From contig JBAYFZ010000001.1 of assembly GCA_041666915.1 (NCBI GenBank), positions 9,086-73,085 of the forward strand: a stretch of 64,000 bases of DNA, read 5' to 3'. Of this stretch, positions 5,396 through 27,488 are shown in pieces. This stretch comes from Minisyncoccota bacterium. GTDB lineage: Bacteria > Patescibacteriota > Minisyncoccia > Phycocordibacterales > PALSA-1337. The notes beneath the pieces are model-generated. The model was not told where the DNA came from and did no database searches. It saw nothing but the letters and a program-made list of their open reading frames with translations. The position numbers were made by a program, and so were the translations under genes. Numbering within the stretch: position 1 is the first letter of the stretch; each line of letters begins with the position of its first letter.

Positions 5396-8300
5396 ATGCA
5401 ACCAAATATAAATAAAAAGCAAAATGAACCAACACAGTTTGACCTAGTCAAATTGACATTGGCATCACCTGATAAGATCCTTGAATGGTCATATGGTGAG
5501 ATCACCAAACCAGAAACCATCAACTATCGTACACAACGATCTGAAAAGAGCGGTCTCTTTGACGAGCGCATCTTTGGTCCAGACCGAGATTTTGAATGTT
5601 ACTGTGGAAAATATCGCGGTATTCGTTACAAAGGTATTGTTTGCGAAAAGTGTGGAGTTGAAATTACACGCTCAATAGTTCGCCGTGACCGCATGGGACA
5701 TATTGAACTAGCAAGTCCAGTTTCTCATATCTGGTTCCTCCGCAGTGTCCCTTCACGTATTGGTCTTATCTTAGGAATGACTACTTCAGATCTTGAAAAA
5801 GTAGTTTATTTCGCTGGATATATTGTTACCAAAGTTCACGTAGGTGAAAAGGAGAGTTTCCTCAAAGAACTTGATACTGAATACAAGAGTAAAGTTAAGG
5901 CTGCTCAAGATGACAAGACCAAGGAAGCTTTGAAAGAACTCGTAGTCAATGCTCGTAAAGATATTGAAAGTCTCGTAGAAGGTTTTGTTATGGATGAAGC
6001 TACTTATCATAAATTTGCTGTGAAGTATGGCTCTCTATTTGAAGCTGGTATTGGTGCAGAAGTCATATACGAACTTTTGAAGAAGGTTGATTTAGTCAAA
6101 CTCCAAGCAGAATTGATCAAGGTTCATGATGTTGCTGGTACAGCTGATCGTGAAAGACTCTCAAAGCGTTTGTCATTGGTCAAGCAAATGATCAAAGCCA
6201 AGGTTCGTCCAGAATGGATGTTCCTAGTTCGTATTCCAGTCATTCCACCAGGACTCCGTCCAATGGTTGCTCTTGATGGTGGACGTTACGCTACTTCAGA
6301 TGTAAACGATTTGTATCGCCGTGTTATCAACCGCAACAATCGTCTTTTGAAATTGAAAGAGATCAATGCTCCAGAAGTTATTCTCCGCAACGAAAAGCGT
6401 ATTTTGCAAGAAGCTGTAGATGCTCTCATAGATAACTCTATCCGTCACAGTTCTTCTGCTGGTGCTGCCGCAGTTGCTGCTCAGAAGCGAGCTTTGAAAT
6501 CACTCTCAGATAGTTTGAAGTCAAAGAGAGGACTATTTCGTCAGAACCTTCTCGGTAAGCGCGTAGACTATTCTGGTCGTTCAGTTATCGTCGTCGGCCC
6601 AGAGCTCAAACTAGATGAATGTGGTTTGCCAAAACACATGGCCTTGGAATTGTTCCGTCCATTCGTCATCTCAGGACTTTTGAAAAAAGAATTAGCTTAC
6701 AACATTCGTGGTGCAAACAGACTCATTGATGATGGTGCAAAAGAAGTTTGGGAAATTCTAGAAGAAGTTATTAAAGGTAAATACGTACTCTTGAACCGTG
6801 CTCCTACTTTGCACCGTTTAGGTATTCAAGCTTTTAGACCTCAACTTATTGAAGGTAATGCTATCCATGTTCACCCACTCGTATGTACAGCTTTCAACGC
6901 TGACTTCGATGGAGACCAGATGGCCGTACACGTTCCGTTGTCAGATGAGGCTCAGATGGAAGCAAAGATGATCATGGCTTCTGATAGGAACATCTTGAAA
7001 CCAGGTAACAATGACCCTACTGTTGTAGCAAAGATGCTTGATATTGTGCTCGGTTGTTTCTGGGTTACGAAAGTTGTGGCTGGTGCAAATGGTGAAGGTA
7101 AAGCTTTTGAATCTCCTGATTCAGCTATCTTGGCAAATAGTTTTGAAAGTATAGATCTTCGTGCCAAGGTTAAAGTTGTAGCTCCAAATACTCCAAAGTA
7201 TGCAAAATTTGAAGGTAAGATTTTTGAGACTACAGTCGGAAGAATCTTGCTCAACAATATTTTGCCTGATGATTATCCTTTCATCAATGAAGAAGTTGGA
7301 CGCAAATATCTAGGTCAGATTATTGACGACATGATCACTCTCCGTGGAGCTGAGAATGTTGCGCCAATTCTAGATAAGATAAAATCTTTCGGTTTTAGTT
7401 ACGCTACTATTTCTGGTACAACTTGGGGTATTGATGACATCATGGTTCCAGATTCAAAGAAAGCAATCATTGCCAAAGGTAAAGTCCAAGCTGATATTGT
7501 CAGTAAGCAGTTTGATGAAGGTCTTCTTGCAGAAGAAGAAAGAATCAGAAAACATATTGAAATTTGGCAGAGAGCCAAGGGTGAAGTTGAAAAAGCAATT
7601 CCTGCTTCTTTGGACAAGCTCGGTTCTGTCTACGACATGATCACCTCTGGAGCTCGCGGATCCCTATCACAGATCACACAAATGGTTGGTATGAAAGGTC
7701 TTATCTCATCAGTTTCTGGAGAAACTATTGAATTCCCGATCCTATCCTGTTCCAAGGAAGGTCTTACTCCTATTGAATATTTCATTACTACTCACGGTTC
7801 AAGAAAGGGTCTCACAGACACCGCTTTGAACACCGCTAAAGCAGGTTACCTCACACGTAAGCTCTTCGTGGTTGCTCAAGATGTCGTAGTTTCTGAAGAA
7901 GATTGTGGTACAAAAGAATTTATTACTATATACAAGCAGACTGCTTCTGGTATGAATATTCCTCTTTCAAAGAATATTCGCGGACGTAATATTGCTGAAG
8001 ATATCAAGACTGCCGATGGAAAAGTTTTATTTGAAAAGGGACATCTCTTGAATAAGTCGGACGCTCTCAAAGTTGAAGCTGCTGGTATAAATGAAGTCAA
8101 AGTCCGTTCACCACTCTCATGTAAAACTCTACGTGGTGTTTGTTCCAAGTGTTACGGTCTAGACCTAGGTAGGAATACTCCTATCGCTCTAGGTGAAGCT
8201 GTAGGAACTATTGCTGCTCAAGCCATCGGAGAACCTGGTACACAGCTAACAATGCGTACATTCCATGCTGGTGGTACTGCTTCACAAGGTGGAGACATCA

Positions 8301-17638: not shown

Positions 17639-20600
17639 ATGCCTCGAAATCAGAATACTACCGAATTTGATAAGCTTTATGGCTTCTTGAATATACCCCA
17701 AAAAATGGCTGTAGATACCGTAGAAGGTCCGGTAGTTGTTATTGCTGGACCGGGAACAGGAAAGACCACGGTGCTCACTTTGCGTATAGCAAATATTTTG
17801 AAGAAGACCGACACTGCACCAGAAAATATCCTAGCTCTCACTTTTACCGAATCTGGAGCTTATGTTATGCGACGTAAACTTATGGAGATCATTGGTCCAG
17901 ATGCTTACAAGGTAAATATTCATACATTTCATGGTTTTGCAGAAAAGATTATTCAAGAATATCCAGATTATTTTTCTAGGATTATTGGATCAAAGATTAT
18001 TACTGACGCTGAGCAGGTTAAGATTGTGGAAAAACTTATTCAAGCTCGCGATGTGAAAATTTTACGTCCTTTTGGAGATCCTGGATATTATGTTAAGTCG
18101 GTTTTGAATGAAATACATCTATTGAAGAGAGAAAATATTTCTCCTGAAAAATTACTGAAAAGTGTAAAAGAGGACATGAACGACCCATCTAGATTTGTAA
18201 AAGGGGATAAGGAATTGTCGGCCACCGAAATTGAAAAACTGGAAAAGAGAAATGAGAAAAATCTGGAGTTAGCTGGAATATACAAAAAATACGAAGGGGA
18301 ATTGTCTGAACAAAAATATTACGATTTTGACGATATGCTTTTGGAATTGATAAGAGCTATGGAAAAAGAGCCTATGCTCAAACTTTTTCTTCAGGAAGTT
18401 TACCAATATATCTTGGCTGATGAACATCAAGATGCTAACGCTTCCCAAAATAGAATATTGGAATTGTTAGCAGATTTTCATGATTCTCCAAACTTGTTTA
18501 TTGTCGGTGATGATAAACAGGCTATATATAGATTCCAAGGAGCTTCTTTGGAAAACTTTTTGTATTTTTCCAAAAAATATAAAGATGCTGTAGTCATTGA
18601 ACTTACTCATAACTATCGTTCACATCAGGGTATTTTGGATGCTTCACATAGTCTTATTGTGAATAATCCTAGTGTTCATGGGCGTGATTTACCAAAATTA
18701 TTATCCCTACAAGTTGGTAGTAAGCCAATATTCATAGATGAATTTTCTACTAAAAATGATGAGTTAGAATATTTGGCCAACATTATGGAACGTCTGATAA
18801 AAAAAGGTGAGAAGCCAGAAGAGATAGCTATTTTGTATCGTGAGAATAAAGAAGCCAAAGCAGTGGCTGAAGCTTTGAGATTCCATGGCGTAGTTTGTCG
18901 TATTGAATCAGATCACAACATTCTAGATGATGTTGATTCTGCAAAAGTTATTGCCATTTGCCGAGCTATACACGATCCATCCAATAGTGAATTGTTGGGC
19001 AAAGCCCTACTACTTTCCGAACTCGGTTGTAGCCCAGCTTCTGTCTCGGAAATTTTCAATCATGCTAGTCGCGAAAGAATATCATTATATAAAATAATTG
19101 AAGAACTTTTGGCTGGTAAAAAGTGGCCACAACTTAGAGATTTTATCGGCCCTTCTAGGTTAAATGAAATTAAGAGTGCTTATAAAAAGATTACCACTTG
19201 GTCAGGGGAATCTCAGACGATGGCTTTTCCAGATTTCTTGCAGAAATTGATACAAGAAACAAATTTGTTGGCATCAATAGTTTCTGCACCAAATTCGTTG
19301 GAAAGATTGGCTTCGTTGGAAGTTTTATTTGAAAAAGTCGTAAAAGCTTCTTCATCCAAGAAGACATTTTATCTGGCTGACTTTATAGAATATATAGATA
19401 TAGTCAGCAATCACGGTATCATGACCAAGCGCACTTTCACGGATCATGTCGGCGGTGTACGTCTCATGACTGCTCATCGTGCCAAAGGTTTGGAATTCAA
19501 TCATGTTTTTATTGTTAATGCTGTAGATGGAGTTTGGGGCAATCGTACAAGGCGAAATCATTTTTCCGTTCCAGTCATAGAACATGCTCGTGATGTTGGT
19601 AGGATTGAAGATGAGCGTCGTCTATTTTACGTAGCCATGACTCGAGCTCGTGAATCTATAAACATTTCTTATGCGAGGTTTAATGATGAAAAGGAAACTG
19701 TCAGAAGTCAGTTTTTATCTGAAATAGAACCAACTCTTATTTCTTTCAATAAACCAGAAACTTTAAACAGTCCAGATTTTTTTATTCGTAAGATGAAAAC
19801 TCCACATGCTACACCAGCGGTTTCTATACTCAATCCAGACTTCGTCAGATCAAAGTTTTTGTCACAACCTTTTTCTGTTACTCATTTGAATAGCTATCTG
19901 GAATGCCCGTGGCGTTACTTCTTCGTAAATCTTGTCAGGGTGCCACAGGCGCAAAATAAGCATCAAATGTATGGAACAGCTATACACTCGGCTTTAAGGG
20001 CCTTTTTTGAGGCTTATAAGATAGAAAGAGACATGTCCAAGAAGGAATTAGTTGATATTTTCAAGCATTATTTGGATAGACAGCCTATGTCCACAGATGA
20101 TCGTCAGGATTCATTCAAAAAGGGAAAAGAAGCTTTGGAAGGATATTTTTCTACATACAATGGTAGTTGGGATCGTAACTTGCTTACGGAGTATGCTGTT
20201 AAAGCTGTGGAACTTGAATTAAATATTAAAAATCAAAAAGATAAAAATTCTGTAAAAATAAAGTTATATCTTACGGGTAAACTTGATAAGGTTGAACTTC
20301 TTGATGAGAAGAATGTCCTTGTCGTGGATTATAAAACTTCAAAACCTAAGTCTAGGAATGATATAGAAGGTAAGACAAAAACTGCCAATGGTAATTACAA
20401 ACGTCAGTTGGTTTTTTATAGATTACTTCTTGATGAAAGTAAGAAGTTTACTATGAAATATGGGGAGATAGATTTTATAGAACCTAACGAAAGGGGAAAA
20501 TTCAAGAAAGAACGATTTGAAATAACTGATAGAGAAGTTGAGGATATCAAATCTTTGATAGAAAAAACAGCAAAAGATATTGTTAATCTTTCTTTTATAG

Positions 20601-20662
20601 ATTCAAGTTGTGACGATAAGGAGTGTAGTTATTGCAGACTTGGAAGGCTTCTTAAGAGTTAA
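17639..20662 (+). CDS. UvrD/PcrA-family ATP-dependent DNA helicase fused to a C-terminal PD-(D/E)XK (RecB/Cas4-like) nuclease domain with Cys cluster
   Basis: Walker A 'AGPGTGKTTVLTLRI'; helicase motifs ('DEHQDAN', 'NYRSHQGI', 'VRLMTAHRAKGLEFNHVFI', 'YVAMTRARES'). C-terminal 'VVDYKTSKP' nuclease motif and 'CDDKECSYC'. Confidence 0.85.
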   Translation: MPRNQNTTEFDKLYGFLNIPQKMAVDTVEGPVVVIAGPGTGKTTVLTLRIANILKKTDTAPENILALTFTESGAYVMRRKLMEIIGPDAYKVNIHTFHGFAEKIIQEYPDYFSRIIGSKIITDAEQVKIVEKLIQARDVKILRPFGDPGYYVKSVLNEIHLLKRENISPEKLLKSVKEDMNDPSRFVKGDKELSATEIEKLEKRNEKNLELAGIYKKYEGELSEQKYYDFDDMLLELIRAMEKEPMLKLFLQEVYQYILADEHQDANASQNRILELLADFHDSPNLFIVGDDKQAIYRFQGASLENFLYFSKKYKDAVVIELTHNYRSHQGILDASHSLIVNNPSVHGRDLPKLLSLQVGSKPIFIDEFSTKNDELEYLANIMERLIKKGEKPEEIAILYRENKEAKAVAEALRFHGVVCRIESDHNILDDVDSAKVIAICRAIHDPSNSELLGKALLLSELGCSPASVSEIFNHASRERISLYKIIEELLAGKKWPQLRDFIGPSRLNEIKSAYKKITTWSGESQTMAFPDFLQKLIQETNLLASIVSAPNSLERLASLEVLFEKVVKASSSKKTFYLADFIEYIDIVSNHGIMTKRTFTDHVGGVRLMTAHRAKGLEFNHVFIVNAVDGVWGNRTRRNHFSVPVIEHARDVGRIEDERRLFYVAMTRARESINISYARFNDEKETVRSQFLSEIEPTLISFNKPETLNSPDFFIRKMKTPHATPAVSILNPDFVRSKFLSQPFSVTHLNSYLECPWRYFFVNLVRVPQAQNKHQMYGTAIHSALRAFFEAYKIERDMSKKELVDIFKHYLDRQPMSTDDRQDSFKKGKEALEGYFSTYNGSWDRNLLTEYAVKAVELELNIKNQKDKNSVKIKLYLTGKLDKVELLDEKNVLVVDYKTSKPKSRNDIEGKTKTANGNYKRQLVFYRLLLDESKKFTMKYGEIDFIEPNERGKFKKERFEITDREVEDIKSLIEKTAKDIVNLSFIDSSCDDKECSYCRLGRLLKS

Positions 20663-23721: not shown

Positions 23722-26454
23722 ATGAAATTATTTGCTAAGACCAGTATTTTTGTAGTTACATTGATGGTTGGCATATCTCTAGGTTTTTTTCATCAAGTTT
23801 ATGCTCAGGTCGATGGTTCGGTCTGGGGGTATCAGGGGTGGACACCTTACGACCTGCCCAATTTGGAAGAAAATAATACGGAAATCATCCAGAATCAAGG
23901 TAGTGATTTTCAAGATCAGAGCAATACTTTTCCTACAAATTTTTCTAATAATTATTACGGTAATAATTATAGACCTTGTGATAATATGAAAAAGTATTTT
24001 TATTTTGGGGGTCAAGGAAAATTAATCACTGAGCGTTTTGGTATATACGATAACAGGTCTAATATTGAGTGTTACATAACTTTCTTATCTAAGCTTAATC
24101 TTTATAATGGTTTAGATGCAGTTATAGTAAATCCTGGCGGACCGAACATTCCTTTGGTGCCAAATGTTTCTGGGGCAAATTGGAACATTAAGTATGCAAA
24201 TAGAGGAGTCTTTAATGAAATTGTTTTGTTTGAGTTTGTCCTTGATGACTTGGGAAAAGGTCAATCGTCTGAAAGTAGATATTGGTATTTGACCGTAAAG
24301 AATAAATCCACAGATCTTCCTATTGTAGAAAATCTTATAGCGAAAAATGGCAAGATTACAATAAAGGTTGGCCCGCTAACTTTTGATTTATCAATGAAAA
24401 AGTCAGAAACTTGTAAGAAGATTTCTGGTGATGGGCCAAATAAAATTGTATTTTTGAGAGGAAGGACATCCGAACTATCAAGTAGTGATCTTTCAGGTAT
24501 GGCAAATGACTTTATTAATCGTGGATTTAAATCTGTTCAACCTATAAAGAAATATTCAAATCTCCTTTCTTTTTATATAGATGAAGTAGAACTTGATGAT
24601 TTGCCGTATTCTTCTGGAGATCAGTATTCTAATGGACTTGAATATGGTATTAATAGGGCTGTTAGGACCGAATCAAAATGCAATTCAATTGATAAAGGTG
24701 ATACGATATATTTGCTATTTTATAAAGGTAGAACAGCTTCTACGGTTAAAATGATAGCCTACACTGATTTTGATAGTAGGGTTATCAAATTAAATATGGG
24801 ATCGTCTAAAGGGAAAATAACTGAATTTGTGGCAGTACATGAATGGGGACATGCATTTGCTAAGCTTTCTGATGAGTACATCATTTCCAAGGAAGATTAT
24901 TTTGGAGATCTTGCAAAAAATATAGATTCCAAGAATTGTACTACGAAACCATTTGAAGATTATGTAGATTCTGAACATAATATAATGTATGGCTCAGATA
25001 ATAATCTAGGGTGTTCCCACGTGTATCATGAATTGTTTGATGATAATCCAAAAAGTGACAGAGCTTCTGTATTTTACAGGCCATCTCCTGTAAGTATTAT
25101 GGATTTGTATGGTCATCTTTTGACTCCTGGTGCGGGCCAGAGATTTAACGTCATTAGTTGCGGTTATGTCATATCAGCTATGTTAAATGAGCCAATAATG
25201 AAGAAAAATGCACAAAAGCATTGGGCAGAATGTCTTCAGATGGCACAGACAGACGGAAGTGTAAATGCTGATGAAATTCCTGTTAGACGCCCTACCCCAA
25301 CCCCTAGCCAAATCATGCCAGATCCTGATGATTCCAATACTTACATAGTATCTGGTACAGGATTCTCACCTACAGGAAATACGGTTGAACTTACATGGCT
25401 TGGTTCAGTTGCTGTTAAAGAAGAGTCAAATTTATTTGCGGATATTATCAAACAAATCTTCCCAACTTCAATACCGCAAGCCTCGGCTGGTTTCAACGAT
25501 ATCTTTAAGATTTATAACATATTATCTGACGGTATCACTTTGAAGTTTACCGTCCCACCAGAAGCTCCAGCTGGAAAATACTCGGTAAGAACATCGGCAC
25601 TTAATAGTGATTGGAGTACAAATATTCTTAATATAGTTAAGACTGTAGGATCAGCGATTTCTAGAGGTAACGTAAATACTACACCACCACCTTCGGTGCC
25701 TCCAACCACACCTCCTCCTGTTGTGCCGAATACACCAGTCACCAATCAACCTGCAACAGCTTATTCATTATCTGTTTCCAAATACGGTACAGGCCAAGGA
25801 ACTGTAACGGGTGGTTCTATCAATTGTGGATCTTCTTGTTCATTGTCAGATGTGACTCCTAGAACTTCTATCAGTCTTACCGCTATACCAGCTTCTGGTT
25901 CTACATTTTCTGGTTGGAGTGGTGGAGGATGTTCTGGAAATGGGAGTTGTAATGTTACAATAAATACAAACCTTACGGTAACAGCAATATTCATTTCTAA
26001 GTCTAGATCTTCTGATACAAATGATTCTGACTCTGACTCTAATACACCCTCGACAGCCGTTTCTGGTTATTGTTCAACAGAATTTAATTCTTGCGTAAGA
26101 GGCTCTTTTTCTGACAGAGAAGATAGTGAGTTTAGTTACAACTGGTCATGTCTCGGTTCAAATGGCGGGGCTGATTCAAAGTGTTCGTCATCAAAGGTTA
26201 TAGTATCAATGAATACAGTTCCAAAGGTTATTGAAAATAAGCCTATTACTTTTATCCCAAAACCAGCCAATCGAGTTGATCCTAAAGACTATGTTATTCC
26301 AGATCTATCTACGACCACCACTCAAGAATCTATTGATATCAAAGTTCCTAAAGGAGCAGATATAATCAAGTCACTTGTATCTGGAATTATCTTGCAAATA
26401 ATGAATGGTGTAAACAAAACTACAGAAACATTTTCTAACGTCTTTAATTTGTAA
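23722..26454 (+). CDS. secreted zinc metallopeptidase (M64/IgA-peptidase-like 'HEWGHAF...LSDEY') with Pro/Thr linker and InlB-B-repeat-like Cys-containing domains
   Basis: Signal peptide; 'VAVHEWGHAFAKLSDEY'; 'TTPPPSVPPTTPPPVVPNTPV'; 'GTVTGGSINCGSSCS...FSGWSGGGCSGNGSCNVT'. Confidence 0.65.
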   Translation: MKLFAKTSIFVVTLMVGISLGFFHQVYAQVDGSVWGYQGWTPYDLPNLEENNTEIIQNQGSDFQDQSNTFPTNFSNNYYGNNYRPCDNMKKYFYFGGQGKLITERFGIYDNRSNIECYITFLSKLNLYNGLDAVIVNPGGPNIPLVPNVSGANWNIKYANRGVFNEIVLFEFVLDDLGKGQSSESRYWYLTVKNKSTDLPIVENLIAKNGKITIKVGPLTFDLSMKKSETCKKISGDGPNKIVFLRGRTSELSSSDLSGMANDFINRGFKSVQPIKKYSNLLSFYIDEVELDDLPYSSGDQYSNGLEYGINRAVRTESKCNSIDKGDTIYLLFYKGRTASTVKMIAYTDFDSRVIKLNMGSSKGKITEFVAVHEWGHAFAKLSDEYIISKEDYFGDLAKNIDSKNCTTKPFEDYVDSEHNIMYGSDNNLGCSHVYHELFDDNPKSDRASVFYRPSPVSIMDLYGHLLTPGAGQRFNVISCGYVISAMLNEPIMKKNAQKHWAECLQMAQTDGSVNADEIPVRRPTPTPSQIMPDPDDSNTYIVSGTGFSPTGNTVELTWLGSVAVKEESNLFADIIKQIFPTSIPQASAGFNDIFKIYNILSDGITLKFTVPPEAPAGKYSVRTSALNSDWSTNILNIVKTVGSAISRGNVNTTPPPSVPPTTPPPVVPNTPVTNQPATAYSLSVSKYGTGQGTVTGGSINCGSSCSLSDVTPRTSISLTAIPASGSTFSGWSGGGCSGNGSCNVTINTNLTVTAIFISKSRSSDTNDSDSDSNTPSTAVSGYCSTEFNSCVRGSFSDREDSEFSYNWSCLGSNGGADSKCSSSKVIVSMNTVPKVIENKPITFIPKPANRVDPKDYVIPDLSTTTTQESIDIKVPKGADIIKSLVSGIILQIMNGVNKTTETFSNVFNL

Positions 26455-26481
26455 TTGTAAAAAATATGTTAGGATAGATTT

Positions 26482-27459
26482 ATGAAAAGAATAGTCATCA
26501 AGGAAGGTCCAGTAGTCTTTTTGAGGAATGTTGTAATCATGGAGATACTGGCCGTGGTTATCTTTGTGGCTATATCTTACCTAGCCAATTATGAGCAATT
26601 ATTTATTGGAATTGGTTTGGATAAGTATGTTCAGTATCACAATTTCATTATAATTGTATTTTCTTTATTCCAACTATTCTATATACTAGCTTTATTTTTT
26701 GATTGGTATCTCAAGTATTACGAAATCCGTGAAAGAGAAATAGTTCGTCGCTCAGGTTTGTTTTTGAGACGTCAAAGGTCTGTTTCTTTGTTGCACATCG
26801 TTGCCGTAGAAGTAACTCAAGGACCTCTGGATCGTATACTTCGTCATGCAAATTTAATTCTAGAACACGATAATGGCAGAACCACTATCATTCAAAATGT
26901 TGCTGGTTATGAAGAATACGTTGAAGTTATCAAGCAGACTATTGATAATACGATGAAGAAACCGATACATTCTAGAAGTTTGCAGATGTTCCTCAAAGAA
27001 GGTGAAGGTTTGTTTTTAGAATACAAACAGACTTTGCGTTATGATATCCGCAAAAAAAGTGTAAGCAAAGATGTAGAAAGGGCAGTGATAAAAACTATTG
27101 CTGGTTTTATGAATGCTGACGGAGGAACTCTGATAATAGGTGTAGATGATGAAGGTAAGGTTACTGGTCTTAAAAATGATTTTGAAACTTTGGCCAAGAA
27201 AAATAGAGATGGTTTTGAAAATCATTTGAATAATCTTGTAAAGACGATGTTGGGTATAAAATTTGCCAATTATATACACACCCGTTTTGACTATTTCAAC
27301 GACAATGAAGCCTGTCTAGTCTCTGTAGACCCTAGTCATAAGCCGGCTTACATCCACAATTCTGAAGGTAAAGAAGAATTCTTCGTTAGAATGGGAAATT
27401 CCACCCAGCCATTTTCTATGAGTGAAGCTGAGGAATATATGAAAACAAGGTGGAAATAA
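26482..27459 (+). CDS. membrane bPH_2 (YdbT/YdbS-like bacterial PH) domain fused to AlbA_2 (Schlafen-like) domain
   Basis: Two TM helices then 'IREREIVRRSGLFLRRQRSVSLLHIVAVEVTQGPLDRILRHANLIL'. C-terminal 'EGEGLFLEYKQTLRYD...IAGFMNADGGTLIIGVDDEGKVTGL' (AlbA_2 pattern). Confidence 0.55.
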   Translation: MKRIVIKEGPVVFLRNVVIMEILAVVIFVAISYLANYEQLFIGIGLDKYVQYHNFIIIVFSLFQLFYILALFFDWYLKYYEIREREIVRRSGLFLRRQRSVSLLHIVAVEVTQGPLDRILRHANLILEHDNGRTTIIQNVAGYEEYVEVIKQTIDNTMKKPIHSRSLQMFLKEGEGLFLEYKQTLRYDIRKKSVSKDVERAVIKTIAGFMNADGGTLIIGVDDEGKVTGLKNDFETLAKKNRDGFENHLNNLVKTMLGIKFANYIHTRFDYFNDNEACLVSVDPSHKPAYIHNSEGKEEFFVRMGNSTQPFSMSEAEEYMKTRWK

Positions 27460-27488
27460 AAAAGGAGGTTAACCTCCTTTTTTATTTT
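27458..27488. terminator. bidirectional intrinsic terminator (AAGGAGGTT/AACCTCCTT palindrome flanked by A- and T-runs)
   Basis: 'aaaaaaggaggttaacctccttttttatttt' between convergent genes. Confidence 0.7.

Follow-up and report, generated by a model that had tools for sequence, protein, structure and literature searches.

What does a Schlafen-type AlbA_2 domain do when it is tied to the membrane? The question is raised by a single gene in a 64,000-nucleotide (nt) stretch of the genome of a Minisyncoccota bacterium (contig JBAYFZ010000001.1, positions 9,086 to 73,085; below, the window means this whole stretch, in which all positions are counted). The gene, an open reading frame (ORF) running from ATG to stop at 26482..27459 on the forward strand, encodes a protein of 325 amino acids (aa) in which two transmembrane (TM) helices are followed by a bacterial pleckstrin homology (PH) domain of the bPH_2 type and by a C-terminal AlbA_2 domain. 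We propose, by analogy with characterized relatives, that it could be a membrane-gated Schlafen-type ribonuclease (RNase), controlled by oligomerization and with tRNA as its most probable substrate, a reading to which we give an even chance of being right. The original prediction, made from the same DNA, had described this order of domains, which Pfam, hydropathy, AlphaFold2, and Foldseek all bear out, and had been unable to place the fusion in a described system; our literature searches, including those for Schlafen together with Patescibacteria, likewise found no description of a TM-hairpin/bPH_2/AlbA_2 fusion.

A genuine gene with the Schlafen catalytic signature

Judged by its sequence, the ORF is a genuine gene and not a chance reading frame, because all 120 of its 120 best homologs contain both Pfam domains and are 306 to 337 aa long. 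Its start codon is fixed by the conservation of the N terminus, where K7, E8, G9, P10, F13, and R15 are at least 90% conserved, and the peptides quoted in the original prediction (REIVRR...HANL, aa 85 to 125; LFLEYKQTLRYD, aa 177 to 188; and IAGFMNADGGTLIIGVDDEG, aa 206 to 225) all lie within it. Pfam-A gives significant matches to bPH_2 (PF03703; aa 80 to 134, E = 1.4e-9, 38.5 bits against a gathering score of 22) and to SLFN_AlbA_2 (PF04326; aa 175 to 311, E = 9.5e-18, 65.3 bits against a gathering score of 25.3, profile positions 1 to 117 of 118), and to these only: Csx15/CARF, GHKL ATPase, Argonaute, and STAND domains are not found in the protein. A scan with NCBIfam returned nothing relevant. 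By every sequence and fold comparison made, the protein belongs to PF04326 and PF03703, and it is a member of no described Schlafen system.

The fold of the C-terminal domain agrees with this assignment. We modeled the protein with AlphaFold2 as a monomer, with 57 family members as input (mean predicted local distance difference test [pLDDT] score, 84.9; predicted template modeling [pTM] score, 0.67), and pLDDT over the AlbA_2 domain is 88 to 93 across most of aa 171 to 290 and 75 to 85 at the C terminus. Compared with the PDB by Foldseek, this domain matches 3lmm, SAMD9 (7ksp/9o0d), and SLFN13, SLFN11, SLFN14, SLFN5, and SLFN12 (also 5yd0, 7zel, and 9nyy) with a probability of 1.0, the best structural match being 3lmm (DIP2311; E = 1.1e-5). 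The family profile matches SLFN14, SLFN13, SLFN11, and 2kyy.

Published hallmarks of Schlafen nucleases are an E(x)4(D/E)xK motif, a "SAFAN" box, and a glycine/hydrophobic core with a further acid (PMC13462974; bioRxiv 10.64898/2026.05.29.728809; PMC12680541), the motif being defined in two of these studies (PMC13462974; bioRxiv 10.64898/2026.05.29.728809). Here, none of 121 close homologs departs from E175, E180, K182, or D223, and among 57 distant full-length homologs (26 to 48% identity) E175, K182, and D223 are each retained in 57/57 and E180 in 56/57; D188, N211, G214/G215, D233, D243, and N306 are equally conserved in this distant set. In the family profile, E175/E180/K182 and D223 align with the E...EFK and GVDD of SLFN14 and SLFN13, and AGFMNADGGTLIIGVDD, which holds the invariant residues F209, N211, G214, G215, G220, and D223, aligns with SAFANTQGGYVLIGVDD of SLFN14. 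Motif mutants lost tRNA cleavage in CbCash (E17/D22/K24; PMC13462974) and in RzAgo (D32; bioRxiv 10.64898/2026.05.29.728809), and toxicity in Avs9 (D45N; PMC12680541). The structures 9jr9 and 9uie are titled as the SLFN14 E211A mutant, E211 being a possible counterpart of E175. Since the complete catalytic signature is invariant, we favor a putative nuclease effector over a passive sensor or binder of nucleic acid.

The same module recurs behind other input domains. The C-terminal ~160 residues (aa 165 to 325) match, at 40 to 49% identity, the C termini of proteins with different N-terminal domains, namely REC, prephenate dehydratase plus ACT, SBP_bac_3, CBS, TIR_2, nSTAND, GmrSD_N, HSDR_N, BrxL, and FtsH_ext; the REC-AlbA_2 proteins, of ~290 aa, come from Acidobacteria and cyanobacteria. 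Across 83 proteins of this AlbA_2 clade with other partners, the residues E, E, K, N, G135, G140, G149, and D153 are invariant, and D143 of GVDD is at least 90% conserved. Because it stands C-terminal to so many different domains, we read the clade as an output domain behind interchangeable inputs, and the fusions suggest that Schlafen-type nucleases may be driven by metabolite or two-component signals outside a defense setting.

Two side observations concern these fusions. Metabolite- or ligand-domain partners occur among P0163-P0269 and P0291-P0392 (prephenate dehydratase plus ACT, 5 proteins; SBP_bac_3, 4; CBS, 1). In addition, FtsH_ext (PF06480) plus AlbA_2, of ~316 aa (P0361 and P0389), is a second membrane-linked AlbA_2 architecture in Patescibacteria, and carries the NCBI name "AlbA family DNA-binding domain-containing protein."

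A membrane hairpin and a cytoplasmic PH domain

Hydrophobicity in 19-residue windows peaks at aa 17 to 35 and 55 to 73 (Kyte-Doolittle means, 2.69 and 2.65), and the AlphaFold2 model places helices at aa 10 to 34 and 52 to 77, followed by a seven-strand sheet with a C-terminal helix (aa 79 to 158) and an alpha/beta domain (aa 173 to 325). Foldseek matches the middle domain to the PH domains of GRK2, Rtt106, and TAPP1 and to the bacterial structure 3b77, and the PHROG "membrane-flanked domain" phrog_3707 covers aa 55 to 158. Lysine and arginine number 4 in the N-terminal 18 residues, 1 in the 16- to 17-residue loop between the helices, and 8 in the 33 residues past the second helix, which under the positive-inside rule predicts an N-in/C-in topology with both the PH and the AlbA_2 domain in the cytoplasm. 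Phobius predictions published for related membrane PH families point the same way: in DUF304 (the former name of bPH_2), among others, the PH domain is predicted to lie inside the cell after two TM helices (PMC2817789).

With the AlbA_2 domain predicted to face the cytoplasm, it would not be able to meet nucleic acid outside the cell. The original prediction had envisaged nucleic acid being sensed or bound at the envelope; the membrane tether in that proposal stands, but the charge bias puts the AlbA_2 domain inside, its invariant catalytic signature favors an effector, and the membrane/PH module is the likelier sensor.

Conservation within the close family is lowest in the loop (0.52) and in the 14-residue linker (0.51) and is 0.64 to 0.83 in all other segments. 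An external loop so short and so weakly conserved is unlikely to bind a ligand outside the cell. Within the membrane, E21 is invariant in the close family and is E, Q, or D in 52/57 distant homologs, in which W75 is kept in 57/57, F72 in 49/57, and Q or E at position 64 in 45/57. The conservation of E21, Q64, F72, and W75 argues that the hairpin is more than a passive anchor and, taken with the loop, fits sensing within the membrane and not through an extracellular receptor.

Distribution in Paceibacteria

A word-indexed search recovered 367 homologs, of which the best 120 all combine bPH_2 with AlbA_2 at 52 to 87% identity; 95 of these 120 are 324 or 325 aa long, and their source names are Paceibacterota, Patescibacteria, or Pacebacteria. 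Family members carry the JGI label "membrane protein YdbS with pleckstrin-like domain." Relatives occur in at least 106 GTDB species representatives, and informative record titles name Paceibacterota/Paceibacteria, candidate Taylorbacteria, Nomurabacteria, Vogelbacteria, and Parcubacteria. The family thus lies mostly in Paceibacteria and has a fixed length of ~324 aa. When 1.84 billion cluster representatives were scanned exhaustively with HMMER, 6498 matched at E<=1e-3, including dozens of full-length clusters of the same architecture at 26 to 48% identity, and these distant full-length members include Harrisonbacteria and one Anaerolineae metagenome-assembled genome (MAG).

Some labels in this set call for caution. 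One family member sits on a 5.7-kb contig (L064, JBEBJM010000040.1) of a MAG labeled "Nitrospira sp.," which is probably a binning error, and dozens of "uncultured Candidatus Saccharibacteria" records (many CAY*/CAZ*) share the syntenic locus with genomes labeled Paceibacterota or Taylorbacteria, so that their titles may be unreliable.

Patescibacteria are expected to be scarce among complete RefSeq genomes, the set on which the published survey of prokaryotic Schlafen proteins drew. The Cash survey analyzed 926 of 4913 Schlafen homologs, those near defense systems, and lists no membrane or PH architecture.

A fixed position and vertical inheritance with losses

The position of the family is fixed between hisS/truB and typA. 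By tblastn against 87 related loci, a convergent TypA is found downstream in 55, HisS upstream in 46, an RNase H-like gene in 42, and PilB in 33. In 41 to 44 of 104 loci, the gene directly upstream and on the same strand is truB, at a median gap of 20 nt; 38 of 41 truB-gene gaps are below 100 nt, four are 4-nt overlaps, and Pth takes the upstream position of TruB in 10 of the 104. The gene looks cotranscribed with truB, and the order hisS-truB-gene is kept in a distant member (P0290, 31% identical to another distant member, P0130). Clustering of every ORF lying no more than 2.5 kb from the gene in the 104 loci yielded only housekeeping genes and antisense shadow ORFs, by which a conserved partner, antitoxin, or immunity gene was rejected.

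To follow presence and absence independently of the gene, we collected loci through TypA (at least 72% identical, with at least 3.5 kb of downstream sequence), "absent" here meaning absent from the conserved locus and not from the whole genome. The gene is present in 6 of 28 such relatives and missing in 22, many of which read hisS-truB-(small ORF)-typA with no room for it. Parsimony on a neighbor-joining TypA tree of 87 taxa requires at least 14 presence/absence changes, and with the TypA counts this led us to reject a universal core gene. Distances between pairs of family members correlate with the corresponding distances for TypA (Spearman, 0.45; Pearson, 0.57) and for HisS (0.53 and 0.71) as well as HisS and TypA correlate with each other (0.46 and 0.54), which favors vertical descent with losses. 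Mean divergence is 0.39, against 0.32 to 0.34 for HisS and 0.43 for PilB. These patterns are most simply explained by an old gene, transmitted vertically and kept by purifying selection, that cells can do without and that has been lost again and again.

The hisS-typA interval itself is variable among relatives, holding HicA/HicB pairs, a class IV aminotransferase, an APH-type kinase, DUF456, or RhuM, and in the window a 910-aa HExxH protein; the typA-truB/hisS interval acts like a small hot spot in which accessory cargo collects. As single cases, HicB (UPF0150) and HicA occupy it in relatives lacking the gene (L097, 9701-10157; L114, ~7018-7266), and a RhuM-family gene lies just upstream of the gene in one relative that has it (L003, 6365-7306).

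Three distant members have other neighbors: DsbD_TM twice; a copper-resistance cluster (HMA, cupredoxin, P-type ATPase, and DUF305); and DUF308/DUF1269 with cytochrome bd and CydDC-like ABC transporters. These contexts, from three of the four distant loci examined, may hint at envelope redox or metal stress. The envelope redox/metal genes concerned lie beside distant full-length homologs at L088 7114-7878, L089 6407-7987 and 8972-13416, and L091 5027-6922 and 8152-13356.

Comparison with known Schlafen and PH proteins

CbCash resembles the protein in having a single-lobe AlbA_2 domain of ~160 aa, the motif E-x4-(D/E)-x-K, one small sensor domain, and a length of ~300 aa (PMC13462974). Its activity is gated by the conversion of an inactive dodecamer into a filament, and it cuts tRNA in the T-loop just 5' of U55 (PMC13462974). 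However, its Schlafen domain is N-terminal and is joined to a soluble Csx15 that binds cA4 from type III CRISPR, whereas here the domain is C-terminal behind a TM hairpin and bPH_2, with no CRISPR or cyclic-nucleotide genes nearby and a housekeeping context.

Mammalian SLFN11, SLFN12, SLFN13, and SLFN14 and SAMD9/9L share the fold (Foldseek probability, 1.0), and the catalytic E, E, K, and D align. The mammalian Schlafen core, however, is a two-lobe pseudo-dimer in one chain with helicase or other C-terminal domains, in contrast to the one lobe seen here, and the mammalian SLFN/SAMD9 proteins are 14 to 19% identical to the window protein, none of them being integral to the membrane.

On the membrane side, the N-terminal two-helix hairpin followed by a cytoplasmic bPH_2 domain is shared with YdbS/YdbT-type proteins. 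YdbS has one PH domain and YdbT three, and neither has an enzymatic domain; the link to a nuclease domain is new here. Proteins of this type belong to the Bacillus sigma-W envelope-stress regulon and to leaderless bacteriocin clusters, where they serve in resistance to, or handling of, membrane-active peptides (PMC8657885, PMC3498285).

Finally, Schlatpase/COG2865-type proteins (AlbA_2 plus GHKL ATPase, with or without a helix-turn-helix domain, e.g., DIP2311, 3lmm) and SLFN-pAgo share the AlbA_2 domain, but by Pfam the window protein has no GHKL ATPase, helix-turn-helix, or Argonaute domain. As a GHKL domain occurs in 58.6% of prokaryotic SLFN proteins (bioRxiv 10.64898/2026.05.29.728809), the window protein belongs to the minority without one. 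By analogy, it probably works like Cash or RzAgo, in which assembly gates tRNA cleavage, with a different input.

How membrane state might control tRNA cleavage

Work on Schlafen, SAMD9, Cash, and RzAgo leads us to suggest that the AlbA_2 domain would be a cytoplasm-facing, membrane-anchored endoribonuclease dependent on divalent metal, with tRNA as the most probable substrate. With one AlbA_2 lobe per chain, it would be active only when two or more lobes assemble into a substrate cleft, and this need to pair is the reason for proposing control by oligomerization; single-lobe prokaryotic Schlafen domains are known to need dimers, tetramers, or filaments (PMC13462974; bioRxiv 10.64898/2026.05.29.728809). 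The hairpin/PH module would be the sensor that sets the oligomeric state and the AlbA_2 domain the effector, a division of labor that draws on the conserved intramembrane polar residues and on the oligomeric rings of bacterial PH domains, which are known only for soluble PHb proteins (PMC2817789). The signal would arise inside the membrane or at its inner face, as membrane damage, energization, lipid state, or a membrane-active agent, and the response would be a throttling of translation. The operon partners truB and pth point weakly to tRNA. It is speculation to link the CbCash cut site to truB through U55, the base modified by TruB.

Several points weigh against this proposal. truB stays in place where the gene is missing, so that the two are not obligate partners, and neighbors concerned with tRNA could follow simply from the density of housekeeping genes in a small genome. 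The envelope-stress contexts amount to three anecdotes, and the fourth distant member (P0287) is without such neighbors. Conservation of the motif is general across PF04326, including many members annotated only as DNA or RNA binding, and as a sequence feature it is no proof of catalysis; the AlbA_2 domain of SAMD9 has also been crystallized as a DNA-binding domain (7ksp). On assemblies, the predicted monomer, with its pTM of 0.67, is uninformative.

A bolder version, which we consider unlikely, is that this would be the first membrane-switched Schlafen nuclease. A buried-carboxylate TM hairpin and a PH ring would read membrane integrity or energization and assemble a tRNase that brakes the cell's own translation; the system would have been coinherited and cotranscribed with truB in Paceibacteria since before their lineages diverged, its cleavage could depend on whether tRNA carries pseudouridine-55, since CbCash cuts just 5' of U55, which TruB turns into pseudouridine. 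Schlafen domains would then have a vertically inherited use in stress response or quality control, not in defense, against the published view of bacterial AlbA_2 domains as primarily immune effectors.

Prokaryotic Schlafen nucleases have been characterized only in 2025-2026. In each of the three cases published, the nuclease is a soluble effector against phage, with cyclic nucleotides, guide-RNA/target-DNA recognition, or a STAND sensor as its trigger (PMC13462974; bioRxiv 10.64898/2026.05.29.728809; PMC12680541). An integral-membrane hairpin with a bacterial PH domain would be a new class of input, and the evolutionary mode (fixed in position, vertical, truB linked, and repeatedly lost) differs as well, in hosts that are ultra-small episymbiotic bacteria of largely unknown biology. 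If the proposed mechanism is right, the bPH_2 membrane module would gain its first function, as a signal transducer, and membrane state would be coupled directly to the cutting of tRNA. If the protein is inactive or a mere binder, it would be one more uncharacterized domain fusion.

Alternative explanations

The alternative that survives best, although we regard it as unlikely, is a dedicated anti-phage abortive-infection effector, in which phage attack on the membrane (injection, holins, or superinfection) would trigger the hairpin/PH module and the Schlafen domain would destroy tRNA. All characterized prokaryotic Schlafen nucleases, namely Cash, SLFN-pAgo, and Avs9, act in defense (PMC13462974, bioRxiv 10.64898/2026.05.29.728809, PMC12680541), and the close AlbA_2 relatives fused to TIR_2, nSTAND, GmrSD_N, HSDR_N, and BrxL fit such a role. 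So do the dispensability of the gene (6/28 TypA-ascertained relatives; at least 14 changes), the HicAB toxin-antitoxin pairs and RhuM that fill the same slot elsewhere, and the protein's only PADLOC match, a weak one (E = 6e-5), to the SLFN part of the pAgo model (profile positions 45 to 167 of 1121). However, no defense genes flank the gene in the window, where the PADLOC matches on neighbors are generic, and the flanks of the 104 loci hold only housekeeping genes and no partner. The divergence of the protein tracks that of HisS and TypA at a rate of 0.39, unlike the horizontally transferred pattern reported for SLFN-pAgo, and no full-length member occurs in IMG/VR viral contigs. A link to a defense island or to CRISPR, restriction-modification, or BREX systems was found neither in the window nor in the 104 loci, no formal defense score having been computed; an HsdR gene lies ~7 kb away at one distant locus.

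These results do not sustain the phage-defense framing of the original prediction: the neighbors are hisS, truB, pth, and typA, the 104 loci reveal a housekeeping context with neither defense island nor conserved partner, and inheritance is vertical, although patchy retention in a variable slot leaves room for a stress or defense role. Two candidates bearing on this question were rejected. Apparent defense neighbors in the window turned out to be core genes, "GajB" being the UvrD domain of the AddA-like helicase-nuclease, itself syntenic, and "MzaA" being RpoD. A phage origin was set aside because IMG/VR holds no full-length relative and only five AlbA_2-only matches, at 35 to 49% identity. 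For the record, the PADLOC cross-matches on these core genes, identified by Pfam, are strong ("MzaA," E = 1e-59 on RpoD, 16251-17480, forward strand; "GajB," E = 3e-81 on the AddA-like gene, 17639-20662, forward strand).

More doubtful is a noncatalytic tether, close to the idea of the original prediction, that would keep DNA or RNA on the cytoplasmic side of the membrane, for instance to receive DNA imported by the neighboring type IV pilus or to localize RNAs. The SAMD9 AlbA_2 domain binds DNA (7ksp), some sources name family members DNA- or RNA-binding proteins, and pilB and pilC lie ~2 to 4 kb from the gene in the window, as they do in at least 31 related loci. Yet pure binding would not need every catalytic acid to be invariant down to 26% identity, and a link to the type IV pilus or DNA uptake was rejected since typA intervenes on the opposite strand between the gene and pilBC and the pilB-typA arrangement is unchanged in relatives without the gene, that is, there is no co-occurrence.

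Least probable, and in our judgment very much so, is a housekeeping membrane-anchored endoribonuclease that would process or degrade RNA, as RNase Y or RNase E does elsewhere among bacteria, or an enzyme of tRNA quality control acting with TruB: anchoring of the main decay RNase to the membrane recurs among bacteria, and the conserved position among housekeeping genes, the apparent cotranscription with truB, and vertical inheritance at a housekeeping-like rate would suit it, but its absence from the locus in 22 of 28 relatives and the at least 14 changes are hard to reconcile with it unless copies lie elsewhere.

Features of the locus and local signals

Table 1. Features of the gene and of its immediate surroundings, with positions in the window
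Feature	Position	Strand	Basis
Complete gene, TM-hairpin/bPH_2/SLFN_AlbA_2	26482..27459	+	ORF, Pfam, 120 homologs with same length and architecture
AGGA, ribosome-binding-site-like	26471..26474	+	7 nt 5' of ATG; read from sequence
Basic N-terminal segment, predicted cytoplasmic, aa 1-16, motif IKEGPxVFLRN	26482..26529	+	Conservation, charge count; model: short strand aa 4-7
TM helix 1, ~aa 17-37, conserved intramembrane M20-E21	26530..26592	+	Hydropathy, conservation
Short external loop (predicted), aa 38-53	26593..26640	+	Mean column conservation 0.52
TM helix 2, ~aa 54-77, conserved Q64, F72, W75	26641..26712	+	Hydropathy, conservation
bPH_2 domain, aa 78-158, seven strands and C-terminal helix	26713..26955	+	Pfam, model, Foldseek
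Linker, aa 159-172, poorly conserved	26956..26997	+	Conservation; pLDDT dip to 72-74
Schlafen-type AlbA_2 domain, aa 173-325	26998..27456	+	Pfam, Foldseek, profile matches
Putative nuclease motif E175-GLFL-E180-Y-K182, form E(x)4(D/E)xK	27004..27027	+	Conservation; alignment to SLFN14/SLFN13 E...EFK
Schlafen-box-like core IAGFMNADGGTLIIGVDD, aa 207-223, ending at third catalytic acid D223	27100..27150	+	Invariant residues; SLFN14 alignment
Perfect palindrome AAAAAAGGAGGTTAACCTCCTTTTTT, 26 nt	27458..27483	.	Between convergent stops of gene and typA; read from sequence

The palindrome looks like a bidirectional intrinsic terminator. It is not listed by the consensus terminator scan, and the promoter/terminator scan of the window performed no better than on shuffled sequence. 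Rfam and ARAGORN found only two distant tRNAs in the window, at 61.6 to 61.9 kb.

Upstream of the gene, the window reads dnaG, rpoD, an AddA-like UvrD/PD-(D/E)XK helicase-nuclease, a DsbA-like gene, an RNase H-like gene, hisS (reverse strand), and an ORF of 910 aa (forward strand), which ends 27 nt before the gene. Downstream follow typA (reverse strand), pilB and pilC (forward strand), and, further on, trxB-like and ftsZ genes. By tblastn, the 910-aa ORF has a counterpart in 0 of the 87 related loci, which marks it as a lineage-specific insertion in the hisS-typA slot. Located at 23722-26454 on the forward strand, it encodes a hydrophobic N terminus, a HExxH zincin-like motif (VAVHEWGHAF), a Pro/Thr-rich stretch, and one InlB B-repeat (Flg_new_2, E = 2.5e-7).

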